Assembly (NCBI GenBank): GCA_003171315.1
Contig: PMYE01000174.1
Span: 7,367 to 71,366, forward strand
Direction: 5' to 3'
Source: Acidobacteriaceae bacterium
GTDB lineage: Bacteria; Acidobacteriota; Terriglobia; Terriglobales; Acidobacteriaceae
DNA: 64,000 nt
The position numbers and the translations under genes were made by a program. The notes beneath the pieces were generated by a model. It was not told the origin of the DNA, ran no database searches, and saw nothing but the letters and a program-made list of their open reading frames with translations. Below, one piece after another: positions 8,106 to 45,043 of the stretch (position 1 is its first letter; each line of letters begins with the position of its first letter).

Positions 8106-11100
8106 TTTTCGGCCTCCGGTTGTGGGGGCGCGATGCCCATCTCGCACAGGGCCGACTGGCAGCGGGTGCAGACGTTCTGCCAGATGCCATAGTTCGCCGT
8201 GTCATGCGTGTAGCGCCAACAACGGTTGCACTTCGTTCCGATGGCACGGCTGGCGAACGCCCTAAATGACCTATTCGCAAACGTGCTTTTGATCAGATCG
8301 TACGCCTGGTCACCGAGCAAATTCCGTAACTCTCCAGAATCTGCATACAGATCGCCCACAAAAACAGACGAGACATTGAGAAACTCTTGCATCCTGTCCT
8401 TCGAAATGGATCGTAGGAATTGCGTGAAATCGCCACTTGCAACAATAGTTACAGATGCTTCAAGCCCTTTGCCCACCGACCCCTCCTTTCTCCAGTCCTC
8501 GATAGCCCGAAAGACTTCGTCGCGGAGCGCAAAGAGCTTTTGCCACTCGGCGAGAATGGGCGCGGGGTCGCCGGAGAAGATCTCTTCCGGCTTGGGAAAC
8601 AGCGCTAGATGCACGCTGGCTTCGCGGCCTTCGACGGCAGGCAGGTGCTCCCAAATCTCGTCGGCGGTAAAGGTAAGGATGGGCGCGACCAGCCGCACCA
8701 GCGCCTCGGTGACCTGCCAGAGCACGGTCTGCGCGGAGCGGCGCGCCGTGCTCGTGGGCGCGAAGGTGTACATGCGGTCCTTGAGCACGTCGAGGTAGAA
8801 GGCGCTCAGGTCCACGATGGCGAACTCGTTCACCGCCTGGTAGACGCGGTGAAACTCGAAGGCCTCGTACCAGGCAAGAATTTTCTCGGTCAGGTCGCGC
8901 GTGCGGGCCAGCATATAGCGGTCCAGAGGCAAAAGCTCGGCCTCGGGAACGCGATCGCGGGCAGGCACAAATCCGTGCAGATTGCCGAGCAGGAAGCGGA
9001 ATGTATTGCGCAGCTTCTTGTAAAGCTCGGCGCAACGCTGCATCAGGTTCTCGCTGGCAGCCGTGTCTTCGCGGAAGTCGACCGAGGCCACCCAGAGGCG
9101 CACGATTTCGCCGCCCATTCTGTTTGCAATATCGATGGGATCGACGCCGTTGCCGAGCGACTTCGACATGGCGCGGCCCTGTTCGTCGAGCGTCCAGCCG
9201 GCGGTAGCGACGTGGGAGTAGGGCGCGCGCCCGCGCAGCGCGACAGAGGTCAGCAGGGAAGAGTGGAACCAGCCGCGGTGCTGGTCGCCGCCCTCCAGGT
9301 ACAGAACCTCCGGGACTTCTCGCCCCTCCCCCTTTTGGAATAGGGAATAGGCTTGGCTAAGATCGGGATCGGACTCGCAGACGGCCAGCCAGCTCACGCC
9401 CGAGTCGAACCAGACGTCGAGGATGTCGGTTTCCTTGCGGAAGGCCGTGCCGCCGCAGTGGGCACACGCGGCGGCGGCGGGCAGCAGCACTTCGAGCGGC
9501 GTCGTGTGCCATGCCTCCGCGCCCTCGCGCTCGAAGAGATCGACGATCCCGCGGTTCAGCGCGGCGTCAACGATGGGCAGATTGCAGCCTTCGCACAGGA
9601 AGACGGCGATGGGCACGCCCCAGATGCGCTGGCGGCTGATGCACCAGTCGGGGCGTGTGGCGATCATGTTGGTGATGCGCTCCTTGCCCCAGGCCGGGTC
9701 CCAGATGACCTTGTCGATCTCCTCAATAGCCACCTGCCTGAATGTGGTTTCAGAGCCGTCGGCGCGCTTCACCGGCGTTTCCAGGCTGATGAACCACTGC
9801 TCGGTGGCGCGGAAGATCACGGGATGATGGCAGCGCCAGCAGTGCGGATAGGAGTGCTCCAGTTGCCCGCCGCCCAGCAGCGCCCCGCGCTCTTCGAGCA
9901 TGGCGACGATGATCGGGTTTGCCTTCCACACATTCAGCCCGTCGAAAGCCGGAGGCTGGGCCAGATGCCAAGCGGCGGGATCGACGTGGATGTGCCCGCC
10001 GGCATCGACGCGGCAGGTGGGGTCCAGACTGTAGCGCTGGCCGGTATAGAAGTCGTCAGCGCCGTGTGCGGGAGCGGTGTGGACTGCGCCGGTGCCCGTG
10101 TCGGCGGTGACGTAGTCACCCAGTACGCCGAGGATCGAGCGTTCCAGGAACGGATGCTGGAAGGTTAAACGTTCGAGCAGGGCGCCCTTGAAACGGGCAA
10201 GTTGTTTCGTGTGACCAAGCCGGCAGGCCGCGGCCACCTGCTCTGCCAGCGCAGCAGCGACAAGATAGACCTCGCCGGACTCGGCCTCCAGCGCCACATA
10301 GTCGAAGTCGGGGTGGAAGGCGACGGCCAGCGATGCGGGCAGCGTCCAGGGGGTGGTGGTCCAGACGATCGTTGAAACCTGCCGCCCGGCGAGCGCCGGA
10401 GCGATCGCCGCGGGATCGGAGGTGAGCCGGTAGCGGACGTAAATCGACGGGCTGGTGTGGTTCTCGTACTCGACCTCGGCCTCGGCCAGGGCGGTGCGAT
10501 CGTGGATGCACCAGTAAACCGGCTTGAGGCCGCGGTAGACGAAGCCTTTTTCGAGAAAGCCGTAGAAGGCCTCCAGCGTGCGGGCCTCGTAGCCGCGAGC
10601 CATGGTCTTGTAAGGCGTTTCCCAGCGGCCGAAGCAACCAATACGCTCGAACTGTTCGGTCTGCAGGCCGACGTACTTCTGGGCATAGGCGCGGCAGGCT
10701 TCGAGAACCGCGGGAACCGGCATTTCCAGCTTCTTGTGGCCCAGTTTCTCGTCTACTTTGATCTCGATGGGCAGCCCGTGGCAGTCGTAGCCGGGGACGT
10801 AGGGGGCGTCGAAGCCAGCCATGGTCTTGGACTTGACCACGAAGTCCTTGAGGCCCTTGTTCAGAGCGTGGCCCAGGTGGATGGGCCCATTGGCGTAGGG
10901 AGGGCCGTCGTGAAGCAGGTAGACGGGCCGTCCGCGGCCGGCTTTGCGCAGCTTTTCATAGAGGCCGAGCGAAGTCCAGCGGGCGAGCCGAAGCGGCTCA
11001 TTCTGCGGCAGATTGGCTTTCATCGCGAAGGCAGTCTGGGGCAAAGTGAGGGTCGCCTTCAACTCCGGCGCAGGGGACATCGGGACTCCGTTCTGGGATG

Positions 11101-21532: not shown

Positions 21533-22363
21533 TTAGATTCCCGCCGCAAATGGCATGGCAAGATAGCGCCCGCGCAGGGCGTTGGCGGTGGTGAGCGCCT
21601 TGTCGAATTTTCGCTTGGCCGTCTCATCGATGCGCTCCAAAAGCGCGAGGTTCCGTTCCGGGGTCAGAATCTCGCTTGCGATCTCATGCAATTGCTGCCA
21701 GTCGTGCCAGTCGCCGACGCGGCGCTGCACGTCACTGAGCGCGGCCATCATGCCCGAATCGGCGTCCGCTGAAAGCTGCAGGACGTAGCGCAGCTCCTTC
21801 ACCTTCAGGCGGAAGGCGTGAATGTTGTCTGCATTCAGCGGCGGCCACGAGCCCAGCTCGCGCACCGCATCCATCGCCGCTGTATGGATTCCCTCATTCG
21901 TCTGCCCGGCTTGCCCGCCTGTCGGCTCGGCGCCTTTTGCCGGGGCCAGCGCGGATCGGACCATCCTGGCATATTGCTTCAGGTCTTCCCGCGCTGCATC
22001 GCGCCGCCGGGCGAGGATACGCCGTAGTTTTTCGGCATTCTGCTGCCGGGCGATTTGCAGATGATCGAGCAGGCGGGTAAGGGAATCGCCGGCCGAGCGC
22101 CGCGCCAGCCTGCGCGCGTTCACAGTCAATACATCCATGTCGCGCACGCCGCCGGCCGCCTTGCGCACTGGCTCAATCGATTTGAGGAGGCGCCGCGATC
22201 TTTTCTCGTCGCTGCGCGCCAGCATGGCGGCAATCGCCTCCACCCGCCGCGCGGCCGTGCGCAGCTTGTGCACCTCTTTGGGCGCGGGATCATCGATCAA
22301 GCTCTTGAGCGTCTTGCTCAGTTCACGCATCGCTTTTCGAGCGCGTTCCAGTTCGTCTGCCAT
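21533..22363 (-). CDS. CHAD domain-containing protein
   Basis: All-helical, Arg/His-rich repeats (HKLRTAARRVEAIAAML, HAFRLKVKELRYVLQL) typical of CHAD domains. Confidence 0.8.
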   Translation of the reverse strand: MADELERARKAMRELSKTLKSLIDDPAPKEVHKLRTAARRVEAIAAMLARSDEKRSRRLLKSIEPVRKAAGGVRDMDVLTVNARRLARRSAGDSLTRLLDHLQIARQQNAEKLRRILARRRDAAREDLKQYARMVRSALAPAKGAEPTGGQAGQTNEGIHTAAMDAVRELGSWPPLNADNIHAFRLKVKELRYVLQLSADADSGMMAALSDVQRRVGDWHDWQQLHEIASEILTPERNLALLERIDETAKRKFDKALTTANALRGRYLAMPFAAGI

Positions 22364-22428
22364 CTCTCCTTAGCTTGGAGCGTTTGGCCCGGGTTGGCAA
22401 GGGCGCATACGGCGGCTAAAGTGATGAT

Positions 22429-23319
22429 GTGAACGGGCTTCTTGTAATCGACAAGCCGGGCGGCATGACCAGCCACGACGTGGTGAACCGGCTGCGACGC
22501 ATTACGGGAGAGCAGTCGATTGGCCATCTGGGCACGCTGGACCCCATGGCCACCGGCGTGCTGCCGCTGCTCGTGGGTAGGTTTACCCGGCTGGCGCAGT
22601 ACTTTTCCTCAGCCGGGAAGAGCTATACCGGAGTGATCCGTTTTGGATTCTCGACCGACACCTATGACGCCGAGGGCGAGCCTGCCGGGCCTGACCAATG
22701 GCCCGAAGTTGCGGGGAAGTTGACACTGGAACGGGTGCGCGAGGCGGCTGCGCGGTTCCACGGCGAGATCGAACAGATGCCTCCGCCCTTTTCGGCCAAG
22801 AAGATCGCAGGCAAGCCCGCGTACAAGCTGGCCCGCGAGGGCAAGCCGGTGGAGCTCAAGCCGGTTCGGATCCGGATCGATGCCTTTGAGATCGTGGCGA
22901 TGGTGGGCTCCGAAGTCAGCTTCACCATCGGCATCAGCTCCGGCGGCTACGTGCGCTCGGTGGCGCACGAACTGGGCTGCGGCCTGGCCTGCGGAGCGCA
23001 CCTGAGCCGCCTGCGCCGCACGCGCGCTGGCGTTTTTACGCTGGCCGACGCACACACTCTGGAGGAACTGGAAACGCTGGCCGGAAATGTGGAGGCTCTG
23101 GAGTGCTTGTGCGTGCATCCGCGCAGCCTGTTGCCTGAGATGCCCGCGGTGACTGGCGACAGCCAGGCGCTGGGCCGGCTGCGCAACGGTGCGCAGGCCA
23201 ATCTGCCGGAGTTCTCCGCCGCCCCGTTGGTGAAGGTCTTCGCCGGGCCACGCGAGCTTGTCGGAATCGCGAAGCGGGTGGCAGGAACGCTGTTTCAGCC
23301 GGTGGTGGTGATGGGATAA
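22429..23319 (+). CDS. truB: tRNA pseudouridine(55) synthase
   Basis: LLVIDKPGGMTSHDVV and GHLGTLDPMATGVLP (catalytic Asp) motifs. GTG start. Confidence 0.92.
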   Translation: MNGLLVIDKPGGMTSHDVVNRLRRITGEQSIGHLGTLDPMATGVLPLLVGRFTRLAQYFSSAGKSYTGVIRFGFSTDTYDAEGEPAGPDQWPEVAGKLTLERVREAAARFHGEIEQMPPPFSAKKIAGKPAYKLAREGKPVELKPVRIRIDAFEIVAMVGSEVSFTIGISSGGYVRSVAHELGCGLACGAHLSRLRRTRAGVFTLADAHTLEELETLAGNVEALECLCVHPRSLLPEMPAVTGDSQALGRLRNGAQANLPEFSAAPLVKVFAGPRELVGIAKRVAGTLFQPVVVMG

Positions 23320-23477
23320 AGACAGGGAATAGGGAGTAGGGAACAGTCGCATCAGCGAAGGTGCGAGCGACAGCATCTTTGCTGTCTACGATGAGTTGAT
23401 GCGATTGATTCATGGAATAAGAGAGAGTAAATCGCCAAGCACGGCTTTCTATTCCCTATTCCCTACTCCCTGTCTTT
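23317..23477. repeat. heptamer-periodic inverted-repeat hairpin element A
   Basis: Left arm 23318-23343 contains AGGGAAT AGGGAGT AGGGAAC. Right arm 23452-23477 contains ATTCCCT ATTCCCT ACTCCCT. The two arms are reverse complements over 26 positions, with 1 mismatch and 1 wobble by hand alignment. The spacer of about 108 nt carries nested hairpins. The element begins at the truB stop codon. Confidence 0.8.
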
Positions 23478-23553
23478 CCCCTTTTCCTCACTCGCCCTCG
23501 GCCCCCACGGCTTAGACTGTTGTTTCGTTGTTTTTTGAAGGAGCAGACCCGCC

Positions 23554-23943
23554 ATGCCCTACCCGACGGAATATCGCTACACCCGCGAGCACGAATGGAT
23601 CTCGGTCGAGGGTTCCATCGGCTCCATCGGCATCACCGACTACGCGCAAAGCTCGCTGGGCGACATTGTGTATGTGGATGCGCCCAAGGTGGGCGATGCG
23701 GTGACGGCCAATGCGACCTTTGGCTCAGTGGAGAGCGTGAAGGCCGTCAGCGACCTCTATTCGCCGGCCAGCGGTACAGTGACCGCGGTGAACGAAGAGC
23801 TGAAGACCGCGCCCGACAAGATCAATCAGGACCCGCACGGCACATGGATCATCAAAGTGGAACTTTCGAACCCGGCCGAGTTGAATTCCCTGCTCGACGC
23901 CGCGGCGTATGAGGCGTTTATTGCAGAGGAAACGGAAAGCTAG
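23554..23943 (+). CDS. gcvH: glycine cleavage system protein H
   Basis: YTREHEWI start region and the lipoyl-lysine motif ESVKAVSDLYSP. RBS GAAGGAG lies upstream. Confidence 0.95.
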   Translation: MPYPTEYRYTREHEWISVEGSIGSIGITDYAQSSLGDIVYVDAPKVGDAVTANATFGSVESVKAVSDLYSPASGTVTAVNEELKTAPDKINQDPHGTWIIKVELSNPAELNSLLDAAAYEAFIAEETES

Positions 23944-24128
23944 TTGCTAGCTTCTAGCTACTTGTCGCTAGTTGCGCCTCGCAAATTTGAGTAGCATCAA
24001 ATGAGCCCGACTTTCGTCGAGCATGCCATTCCGGCTCGTACACTGGCTTTTAGCTAGGAGCTAGGAGCTAGGAGCTAGGAGCTAGAAGCTAGAAGCTAGG
24101 AGCTAGGAGCTAGAAGCTAGAGGCTACA
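23941..24128. repeat. heptamer-periodic inverted-repeat element B with a 10-copy AGCTAGR tandem array
   Basis: The left arm at 23941-23975 is TAGTTGC TAGCTTC TAGCTAC TTGTCGC TAGTTGC. The right arm at 24052-24121 is (AGCTAGG)4(AGCTAGA)2(AGCTAGG)2(AGCTAGA)2, then GGCTACA. CTAGCTTCTAGCT pairs with AGCTAGAAGCTAG. The element fills the whole gcvH-gcvPA spacer. Confidence 0.85.
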
Positions 24129-25493
24129 GTGCGCTATCTCCCAAAATCCGACGAAGAACGCCGGCAGATGCTCGCGGAGATCGGTGCGGCCACGATCGAC
24201 GATCTTTTCTCGAGTATTCCGGCCGAATACCGCCTGGCGCGCGACCTTGCCGTTCCGCGCCAGCAGGCCGAAAGCGAGATCGTTGCATACTTCCGCGCCG
24301 CCGGGCAGAAGAACGCGACCGATTACGCCAGCTTTCTGGGCGCGGGCGCGTATCTCCACTACCGGCCGGTCATCATCGACGCCCTCGTGCAGCGCGGCGA
24401 GTTTTTGACCAGCTACACGCCCTACCAGGCCGAGATTACGCAGGGAACTCTGCAAGCGATTTTTGAATTCCAGACCATGATCGCCGAGCTGACCGGCATG
24501 GACGTGGCCAACGCCAGCATGTACGACGGGTCGACCGGCGCGGCCGAAGCCGCGATGATGGCGGTCCGCGTGACCGGTCGCCACAAGGCCGTCGTTGCCT
24601 CAACCGTGCATCCCGAGTATCGCGAGGTGCTGGCCACTTACGCAAAGCATAAGGGCCTGACAACCGCTCTGGCTGGATACGACCAGGAAACCGGTCGCGT
24701 CGACTTAAAGGCGCTCGCCGCTGCGGTTTCCGCGGAAACCGCAGCTGTCCTTGTCCAGAGCCCGAACTTTTTCGGCATCATCGAAGACATTCCGGCGATT
24801 GCGGCCATCGCCCACGCCAATGGCGCGCTGCTCATCGTGTCCATTGCCGAGGCGGTCTCGCTGGGCATCGTGCGGCCGCCGGTAGAGGCCGACATTGTCG
24901 CCATGGAGGCGCAGTCGTTCGGCGTGGCGCTCTGCTATGGGGGCCCTTTCTGCGGCGTGATCGCGGCCAAAGAGCAATTTGTGCGGCAGATGCCGGGCCG
25001 GCTTGCCGGCCAGACCGTCGATGGGGCAGGGAATCGCGGCTTCGTTCTCACCCTTGCTACGCGCGAGCAGCATATCCGTCGCGAGAAGGCCACCTCGAAC
25101 ATCTGCACCAACCAGGCGCTGGTCGCGCTGATGGCGACGATCTTTATGGCCGTCTACGGCAAAGAAGGCATGCGTGAATTGGCCGAGCACAATTTGGCCA
25201 AGGCCGATTACGCGGCGAAGACACTCGGCAGCCAGCCGGGCGCAAAGCTGCGTTTCAAGGACACGTCGCTCGGGGGCGCGCCGCGCTTCCATGAATTTGT
25301 GTTGCAAACCGAGGAAGCTCCGGCGGTCTGGAGCCGGAGGCTGCTCGAAAACAAGATTGTGGGTGGCGTCGAGTTGAGCCGCTGGTATCCCGAGCTCGGC
25401 AACTGCACCCTCTGGTGCGCGACAGAAGTCGTCACGCGCGAACAGATCGAAACTGCGGCCAAAGTGCTGGCGGGCGTAGAGGTGGAGGCGTAG
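24129..25493 (+). CDS. gcvPA: glycine dehydrogenase (aminomethyl-transferring) subunit 1
   Basis: 454 aa with [15 protein letters not shown] start and [14 protein letters not shown] motif. GTG start. Confidence 0.93.
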
Positions 25494-44105: not shown

Positions 44106-44927
44106 ATGAGAGGTCTTCGCCGCGCATATTTTGCCATGATCCCGCCGTTACTCGCGGGTCTCATGGCTTTTCTCGCCATCCCCTTGCGCGCCGAACCCGT
44201 CGCAAGCCTGCCCCAGCCCACCGATTACGTCAGCGATTTTGCGCACGTGCTCTCGCCGCAGGCCATTGCGCAGTTGGATTCGATCTGCCAGCAGCTTGAC
44301 CACTCGCAGGCCCGCGCGCAAATCGCCGTGGTCACCGTACACGATCTCAACGGCGACGACGCGGCCGACTATGCCGATCGGCTTGAAGACCACTGGAAGA
44401 TGGGGAACAAGGGCGACAACAAGTACGCCATGGTGCTTCTGGCCGTCGCCGACCACAAATACCGCATTGAGGTTGGCTACGGTCTGGAAGGCATCCTGCC
44501 CGATGGCAAAACCGGCGACATCGGCCGCGGGATGGTGCCTGACCTGAAGGCCGGCGACTATGACGGAGCGGTCACGTTAGCCGTCGGCGAGGTTGCCCAG
44601 GTGATTGCCGCCGATGCAAACGTCACGCTGAACCAGGACGAGCCGGCGCCAGTGAGCCAGCCCGAACAGCACGGCGACGGCTTTGGAAAACTCATTCTAC
44701 TCATCCTTCTCCTGGTCTTTTTCGGAGGAGGCTCGCTACTCCGCATGCTCTTCGGCTTCGGTCTGTTCTTTGGGGGATGGGGCGGAGGCGGTTGGCGCGG
44801 AGGGCCTATGATCGGCGGGCCCGGGATGGGCGGCGGATTTGGCGGTGGTGGGGGTGGTTCGGGCTTCGGCGGATTTGGTGGCATGGGCGGCGGATTTGGC
44901 GGCGGCGGCGCCGGAGGAAGTTGGTAG
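44106..44927 (+). CDS. TPM domain-containing protein (YgcG-like) with Gly-rich C-terminal tail
   Basis: Signal peptide, TPM-type DYVSDFAHVLSPQAI...IAVVTV...YRIEVGYGLEG, a TM helix, and a GGWGGGGWRGG...GGFGGGG tail. The N-terminal part of the 429-aa track ORF is antisense to the peptidase gene and is discarded. Confidence 0.85.
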   Translation: MRGLRRAYFAMIPPLLAGLMAFLAIPLRAEPVASLPQPTDYVSDFAHVLSPQAIAQLDSICQQLDHSQARAQIAVVTVHDLNGDDAADYADRLEDHWKMGNKGDNKYAMVLLAVADHKYRIEVGYGLEGILPDGKTGDIGRGMVPDLKAGDYDGAVTLAVGEVAQVIAADANVTLNQDEPAPVSQPEQHGDGFGKLILLILLLVFFGGGSLLRMLFGFGLFFGGWGGGGWRGGPMIGGPGMGGGFGGGGGGSGFGGFGGMGGGFGGGGAGGSW

Positions 44928-45043
44928 CGCATCGAGCTCTCAGCCTTCAGCTCTCAGCTTTCAGCAGGTGCCGCGAAGCTCGGAGCCGTATCGTAAATGC
45001 CAGAGGGCTAAGCTGAAAGCTGACGGCTGATTGCTGATAGCTG
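44925..45043. repeat. heptamer-periodic inverted-repeat hairpin element C
   Basis: The left arm at 44932-44965 is TCGAGCT CTCAGCC TTCAGCT CTCAGCT TTCAGC. The right arm at 45007-45043 is GCTAAGC TGAAAGC TGACGGC TGATTGC TGATAGC TG. An 11-bp perfect core CAGCTTTCAGC/GCTGAAAGCTG extends to about 30 imperfect bp, with a 46-nt loop. The element begins at the TPM gene stop. Confidence 0.8.

Follow-up and report, generated by a model that had tools for sequence, protein, structure and literature searches.

The closest described counterparts of the element considered here, a hairpin with heptamer-repeat arms that begins at the stop codon of truB, are the (GGGANTN)n heptamers of Xanthomonas campestris and X. 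axonopodis, which Rehm et al. (2015) read as G-quadruplex motifs (PMC4692102). Those repeats mostly comprise four units, are intergenic in 89-93% of cases and mostly placed between co-directional open reading frames (ORFs), and are found an average of 28 nt from the ORF on their 5′ side, much closer than the 160 nt that separate them from the downstream ORF (PMC4692102). Between 70 and 75 convergent pairs per genome are potential stem-loops, with a position that is conserved between the species and a repeat length that is not, and heptamer repeats of a GGGGAYT unit are found in Nostoc (PMC4692102). The truB element lies in a 64,000-nt stretch of DNA (the window; C125:7367-71366) from a peat acidobacterium's 3.29 Mb assembly of 204 contigs and 61% G+C, which according to its TruB relatives is a metagenome-assembled genome of Terracidiphilus (Acidobacteriaceae). 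We consider it probable, at roughly 60%, that the truB hairpin belongs, as a copy without a gene, to a dispersed family of DNA-level foldback elements linked to genes of the PF05635 four-helix-bundle family.

The arm of the truB element contains GGGAATA and GGGAGTA where the Xanthomonas unit is GGGAATC, and its GGGAACA is one position off GGGANTN. Like the published repeats, the element is intergenic, close to its 5′ ORF and arranged as an inverted pair, and the modal number of units is about four in both. The Xanthomonas paper links its repeats neither to other heptamer families nor to PF05635, whereas in the present genome unrelated units share one anatomy. The inverted pairs of Xanthomonas appear to be elements of the same kind as the present family. 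An earlier note on this DNA had allowed that the arms might be copies of an abundant known repeat family, and in part they are: they belong to a dispersed family, and inverted (GGGANTN)n pairs are published for Xanthomonas. The truB element is a member of an already known, unexplained kind, and its main interest is the bearing of the orthologous-slot comparison on the class.

The intervening sequence (IVS) in helix 45 of the Coxiella burnetii 23S rRNA, which carries an S23p ORF, has a 28-bp terminal stem that is cut by RNase III (PMC4990558). A long terminal stem is common to both systems (28 bp in Coxiella, 29 bp in the truB element), and the gene family of the Coxiella and Leptospira IVSs, PF05635, is also that found in the loop of the full form of the present family. 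In contrast to those IVSs, the truB element lies between protein-coding genes and not in 23S helix 9, 25 or 45, is without an ORF and has arms made of tandem heptamers. Our search of the literature found no paper connecting PF05635/S23p with heptamer repeats. Direct repeats of the heptamer TAACTGA were described by MacGregor (2015) in Beggiatoaceae, Cyanobacteria and Bacteroidetes (PMC4679880). They resemble the present arrays in being intergenic, in having two to six units that adjoin ORFs, in their stop triplets and in their patchy spread across phyla, but nearly all are single direct arrays just before start codons (with one inverted case), one unit dominates, and no four-helix-bundle gene is reported with them. 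The cyanobacterial short tandemly repeated repetitive (STRR) sequences are heptamer repeats as well. Abundant intergenic hairpin repeats that are tolerated in operons, many of them gene-less doublets, are known from proteobacteria as repetitive extragenic palindromes (REP), bacterial interspersed mosaic elements (BIME) and the REPIN-RAYT system. The present family shares with REPIN-RAYT an 'autonomous' form, in which a gene lies between inverted repeats, alongside gene-less copies; however, REPs are single imperfect palindromes partnered by a Y1 transposase, whereas here tandem heptamers go with a four-helix-bundle gene and the Y1 genes are unassociated. Integron attC sites also follow a grammar of structure and not of sequence, sit past stop codons and have the core sites RYYYAAC/GTTRRRY. 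This identity was rejected, since the neighbours of the truB element are syntenic housekeeping genes in 28 genomes and its termini, AAAGAC/GTCTTT, differ from those core sites.

The hairpin and its genome-wide family

The truB element is 160 nt long in total (23318-23477), leaving a gap of 76 nt to gcvH. In window coordinates the features of the locus are:

22429 to 23319, plus strand: ORF of truB (tRNA pseudouridine-55 synthase), from the ORF list; the query for 80 orthologues of 75-94% identity.
23318 to 23346, plus strand: 5′ arm, with the head AAAGAC followed by AGGGAAT, AGGGAGT, AGGGAAC and AG; period 7, 2.9 copies in TRF.
23347 to 23448, plus strand: loop or spacer of 102 nt with two nested stems; single-copy in the genome.
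23449 to 23477, plus strand: 3′ arm, with CT followed by ATTCCCT, ATTCCCT, ACTCCCT and the tail GTCTTT; period 7, 3.3 copies in TRF.
23478 to 23553, plus strand: conserved gcvH leader, outside the element, CCCCTTTTCCTCAC ... TTAGACTG ... AAGGAGCAGAC; from 28 orthologous spacers.

The truB stop codon, TAA at 23317-23319, shares its last two bases with the start of the element's outer A-run. The repeat search returned the arms (AAAGACAGGGAATAGGGAGTAGGGAACAG at 23318-23346 and CTATTCCCTATTCCCTACTCCCTGTCTTT at 23449-23477) as two copies of 29 nt each, 90% complementary with 26 matches and 102 nt apart. The local description in the earlier note proved accurate. Read directly from the sequence, the arms pair over 26 positions with exactly one A/C mismatch and one G/T wobble, and TRF finds the 7-nt period in both of them. 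The two nested inner stems, TCGCATCA (23347-23354) with TGATGCGA (23397-23404) and GACAGCA (23369-23375) with TGCTGTC (23380-23386) around TCTT, exist and are part of the minimum-free-energy fold, and the triplets TAA at 23317, TAG at 23330 and TAG at 23337 do fall in three frames. The predicted structure goes beyond chance, at -84.8 kcal/mol against -46.7 ± 4.6 in 200 dinucleotide shuffles (z = -8.3), none of which equalled it; the minus strand of the element folds with z = -10.3.

No known element was recognised at the locus. Nothing in an Rfam 15 search of 22000-25000 rose above the gathering score, and a match to plant MIR408 (33 bits where 64 are needed, on both strands) was set aside as an artefact of hairpin shape. 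A scan of 23250-23600 for canonical promoter and terminator consensus sequences found none, and the 102-nt loop, the only moderately T-rich tail and the lack of a consensus match do not correspond to an intrinsic terminator. Comparison with the plasmid collection gave no match.

The grammar that the earlier note had seen in three elements, with inverted heptamer arms, a structured loop and a beginning at the stop of the preceding gene, was confirmed, and the census of arrays and hairpins extended it to the whole genome. Across the assembly, TRF found 454 period-7 tandem arrays against 157 each at periods 6 and 8, and 315 of the 454 were intergenic, whereas arrays of other periods were mostly coding. 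The modal heptamer array has four units, and a small number of unit families prevail, namely AAGCTAG (51 arrays), AACAGGG (39), AAAGCTG (29), AGGGATC (29), ACTCCCT (23) and AATAGGG (18). A reverse-complement partner (score of at least 11, at most 450 nt away) accompanied 120 intergenic arrays, compared with 10 in a reverse-only control. These inverted pairs merge into 68 hairpins, 63 of which have refined termini. Two more hairpins of the same class lie in the window:

23941 to 24128, plus strand: second hairpin, in the gcvH-gcvPA gap; arms AGCTNCT / AGCTAGR.
44925 to 45043, plus strand: third hairpin; arms CAGCTYT / AGCTGAR.

The units run inward from both ends as (YAGNNNN)n ... (NNNNCTR)n in 46 of the 47 classifiable hairpins (p = 7e-13), and an outer motif, (T)AAAGRCAG ... 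CTGYCTTT, is common to all arm families together with a T-rich tail. The truB element fits this anatomy at its termini, reading AAAGACAGGG ... CCCTGTCTTT with the AAAGRCAG / CTGYCTTT motif and the inward topology. The one-sided topology and the presence of the terminal motif across all arm families argue for copying or descent over free convergence, and the topology favours the second of the two origins offered in the earlier note, a mechanism that generates or copies the arms. The motif is specific to the lineage and is absent from the cassettes found elsewhere in the phylum. An apparent co-orientation of 'U arm first' with transcription was discarded as trivial: an inverted repeat reads identically on both strands, which leaves the topology as the informative property.

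The loops, compared across 60 hairpins, have essentially nothing in common and lack the shared interior of a miniature inverted-repeat transposable element (MITE). At truB the arms match about 60 places in the genome while the loop matches itself only, and the AGGGART arm family is shared with about 40 other arrays. Thus the arm sequence does differ from those of the two elements, B and C, with which the earlier note had compared it, but it is not private to this site. With respect to genes, the hairpins start 0-10 nt past the upstream stop, and among solo arrays those of the 5′-arm type adjoin the upstream stop and those of the 3′-arm type the downstream start. Of 40 adjoining stops, 20 are TAA, a codon with a share of 25% in the genome as a whole, and the tails contain 33-49% T against a background of 19%.

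Some members of the array population depart from this pattern. The longest array of the genome, (CAGGGAR)17.4 at C55:35486-35607, is solitary, and an inverted partner was not detected. A minimal array of the AGGGART-type unit family, GGAATAG x2.1, lies at 9337-9351 of the window inside an apparent minus-strand coding sequence. Two long-looped heptamer hairpins, C179:38521-38982 and C196:7493-7839, have a common 84-nt core of 92% identity that is neither a PF05635 gene nor an Rfam family and may be a second kind of cargo.

The slot after truB in related genomes

TruB orthologues led to 80 related genomes, 28 of which keep truB followed by gcvH (WIN denotes the window's genome and L numbers the loci of relatives). 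In the syntenic genomes the position of the element is constant, between the truB stop and the conserved gcvH leader (CCTTTTCCTCAC...). A heptamer-armed hairpin starts 0-27 nt past the truB stop in at least 33 of the 80 relatives, and many others retain one arm or just the AAAGGCAG head. The case that the earlier note had named as refuting its reading, an element private to one strain, was not borne out by this comparison, in which the arms are complementary within each relative's genome though the unit varies between genomes. The units seen in the truB slot include AGGGART, CAGGGNT, CAGTNNT, AGCTNCT, TTCGTGR and AGGGRTT, among others. On the TruB tree the AGGGAR arm type is unclustered, requiring 16 changes over 17 rows where shuffling gives 15.7 on average.

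The locus gives a clean comparative view of a fixed slot with a changing hairpin, since the flanks are conserved enough to tell replacement from gradual drift. The sister genomes WIN and L001 (support 100/98) agree almost completely in their flanks but have unrelated arms and loops, and L003 and L006 repeat this pattern. Two loop alleles recur in genomes that are not sisters, type A in L003/4/7/12 and type B in L001/2/6/8/14/16. The recurring alleles point to replacement of the whole element, which would probably have occurred via recombination within the conserved flanking sequences. A relationship of the WIN loop to type A (L003/4/7/12) or type B (L001/2/6/8) was considered and rejected, the local alignment scores being in the shuffled range; a 23-nt match between the WIN and L001 loops (p ~0.013 before correction for nine tests) was likewise dropped, as the MAFFT alignment did not bear it out. 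The sisters also differ at the gcvH-gcvPA slot, where WIN has the gene-less AGCT-armed hairpin and L001 a full PF05635 cassette at the same site, and therefore two adjacent slots are different between them. This L001 cassette (L001:4498-4945, orthologous to window 23941-24128) has TAGGGAC / AGTCCCT arms.

The slot can also be empty or contain decayed copies. In L005 a TGA is followed directly by the leader, giving a 74-nt spacer in which the gcvH leader is intact. Older orthologous copies have decayed arms, with arm scores of 15, 10, 16.5, 10 and <9 in type B. The longest hairpin seen in the truB slot, L050:3887-4050 in another Terracidiphilus, lies 3′ of truB and has 54-nt arms of AGGGGTT/AGGGATT units; these units resemble telomere repeats of the TTAGGG type. 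The gcvH leader itself (CCTTTTCCTCAC ... CTTAGACTGGAATTTCGCTGTC ... AAGGAGCAGAC) is strongly conserved in 28 of 28 syntenic genomes. At 23478-23553 it has neither an Rfam match nor a sigma-70-type promoter match, and it could be a non-canonical promoter or an element of the 5′ untranslated region.

Genes of the PF05635 family between heptamer arms

The link to PF05635 comes from hairpins with long loops. In two of them, C176:20647-21124 and C78:4362-4804, the loop contains an ORF with a match to PF05635 (23S_rRNA_IVP), at E = 3e-34 and 2e-38; both ORFs also match TIGR02436, and their bAvd match is weak. These genes occupy C176:20736-21089, between AGGGAGT arms, and C78:4394-4744, between AGCTTCT arms. 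Inverted tandem arrays enclose every one of the five PF05635 genes of the assembly, the arms being heptamers in four cases and octamers in one. AGGGAGT-type arms like those of the truB element surround two or three of the five, including those in the cassettes at C176:20647-21124 and on C24. At C24:3078-3434 two TGA codons interrupt the reading frame, making this copy a pseudogene; its AGGGAGT/AGCCAAT arms are still long, with more than 13 units on one side. The octamer-armed gene, C35:11400-11950 (locus L083), has arms of TTAGCGGR / CCGCTAAC.

The association extends across the phylum. Of 121 Acidobacteriota genomes, 71 carry a PF05635 gene. Inverted arrays lie on either side of 29 of the 30 copies that were sampled, with period 7 in 21, period 8 in 6 and period 9 in 2; the arm units of these cassettes all differ. 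Random samples of 40-234 kb from 17 genomes contained dense heptamer arrays in 5 of 10 PF05635-positive genomes (this one, G017, G112, G064 and G050) and in none of 7 negative ones, which is suggestive of dense arrays going with PF05635 across genomes. The distant acidobacterium G017 (loci L144 and L146) has five PF05635 genes; its sample contained 43 period-7 arrays per 100 kb, diverse units being packed side by side, a density far above that of the window's genome.

Competing explanations, mechanism and meaning

An RNA structure under local selection at the 3′ end of the truB transcript, which would act as a terminator, a barrier to 3′ exonucleases or an RNase III site insulating truB from gcvH, and whose sequence drifts while the structure is kept, is in our opinion a doubtful account of the element. 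It would fit the recurrence of hairpins with complementary arms and many different units past the truB stop of the relatives, the very stable fold on both strands, the A-rich head and T-rich tail, and the enrichment of TAA stops beside the elements. However, selection on an RNA stem would make G·U mismatches outnumber A·C on the sense strand, and we counted 44 G·U to 48 A·C in the co-directional hairpins of the window's genome, and 27 to 30 in the hairpins after truB in 36 relatives (71 to 78 when pooled). Since there is no excess of G·U, there is no sign of such selection, and the RNA-level selection on structure that the earlier note had entertained finds no footing here. Nor would a locally selected structure lead one to expect the decay of older orthologous copies, the absence of the element from L005 with its leader intact, the unrelated loops of sister genomes or the lack of a canonical terminator in the consensus scan, and a 46:1 topology is unexpected if any stem sufficed. 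Taken together, the absence of a G·U excess, the one-sided topology, the decay of older copies and the signs of replacement favour a DNA-level origin of the elements in nearly perfect form, followed by erosion.

A DNA-level origin might also be that of a classical non-autonomous transposable element of the MITE or REPIN type, mobilised by a transposase in trans that binds the arrays as terminal inverted repeats. The arms are indeed dispersed and multi-copy, the terminal motif is shared, orthologous sites show presence, absence and replacement, and the genome has five Y1 (IS200/RAYT-type, PF01797) transposase genes. We nevertheless regard this as improbable, since the copies have no interior in common, target-site duplications were not seen, and a heptamer array lies within 700 nt of only one of the five Y1 genes against a random expectation of 17%; furthermore, the sole gene found consistently between the arms encodes a four-helix bundle of 118 aa with no known catalytic motif. 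Two functional readings of the unit itself are very unlikely. A G-quadruplex, formed by the G3 tracts of the AGGGART arm and affecting transcription or translation, would agree with the fit of GGGAATA and GGGAGTA to the published (GGGANTN)n (PMC4692102) and with the presence of three G3 tracts in the arm, to which the GGG of the last truB codons could add a fourth. This cannot explain the class, however, because hairpins of the same anatomy have arms without G-runs (AGCTTCT, 51 arrays; CAGCTTT, 29; CAGTGGT, 14) and because within a hairpin the G-rich arm always faces its complement. There is just as little to recommend a translation barrier, in which a stop triplet in each unit would halt ribosomes at gene ends in any frame and on either strand, although the truB copy has TAA, TAG and TAG in three frames, the AGGGART, AGCTAGR, AGCTGAR and CTGATCC families have a TAG or TGA every 7 nt, and TAA is enriched at the adjoining gene ends. 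The 39 arrays of the CAGGGAA/TTCCCTG type are free of stops on both strands, as are many arm units found elsewhere in the phylum (GGGACCT, CAGGAGG, GGGAGAC and GCGAGAC), and the native truB stop codon keeps its position with or without the element. The earlier note's generalisation of one stop triplet per unit thus fails, and frame-independent stops are not the rule when the second most common arm family has no stop triplet.

We therefore return to the reading of the truB hairpin as a gene-less member of a foldback family, against which several observations weigh. Neither blastn against the five full cassettes nor a profile search (hmmsearch) of six-frame translations found a PF05635 remnant above chance level in the truB loop, 60 other loops or 18 orthologous spacers, and since the loops are unique and without a gene remnant, it is the arm anatomy by itself that speaks for a gene-less derivative. 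The hairpins could instead be the primary element, merely colonised by a PF05635 gene. The association of PF05635 with dense arrays is borderline (p of about 0.04, uncorrected for phylogeny), and the intergenic/coding split of the arrays depends on crude gene calls. No mobilising enzyme was identified, the Y1 transposase genes being present but without flanking arrays, and no target-site duplication is visible at the 63 refined termini. Finally, the persistent occupancy of the slot, the enrichment of TAA and the T-rich tail could mean a selected role at gene ends.

The comparisons do establish that the truB hairpin belongs to a dispersed foldback family linked to PF05635, that it occupies a permissive slot at the truB stop and that the occupant of this slot turns over by replacement. 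Beyond this, the hairpin would be a DNA-level element that is selfish or near-neutral and not a locus-specific regulatory RNA. Its near-perfect arms would arise by copying or insertion, or the whole allele would be replaced by recombination in the conserved flanks, after which point mutation and array slippage would act until the element is lost or replaced. It may be tolerated between truB and gcvH because its transcribed stem of about 29 bp would loop the insert out and bring the flanks together, by analogy with the rRNA insertions. The likeliest molecular consequence would be RNase III cleavage or protection of the 3′ end, so that the transcripts of truB and gcvH are no longer coupled, as the stem resembles the terminal stem of the Coxiella IVS and an RNase III gene (rnc) is present in the genome. 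The heptamer arrays may be binding or recognition sites for the four-helix-bundle protein acting in trans, which is the least secure step.

For annotation, this means that such operon spacers of Acidobacteriota should be flagged as repeat elements and not as riboswitches, small RNAs or terminators. Elements copied at the DNA level are argued for by the lack of a wobble bias, by the one-sided topology and by the restriction of dense arrays to PF05635-carrying genomes among those sampled, and the link to the IVS/Avd-like protein family is made testable by these results. To our knowledge, the over-representation of heptamer tandem repeats in many bacterial genomes has never been explained. We tentatively suggest, as an idea that is more likely wrong than right, that PF05635 (Avd-like) proteins recognise tandem 7-nt units, a different one for each gene lineage, that they copy or exchange heptamer-armed hairpins at gene ends together with a host or other enzyme, and that the truB hairpin serves them as a non-autonomous partner site. 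If true, this would constitute a class of foldback elements that has no transposase, and it would explain the heptamer excess of bacteria (cyanobacterial STRR, Xanthomonas GGGAATC and TAACTGA), the origin of ORF-bearing rRNA IVSs and the allele-like swapping of hairpins past truB.

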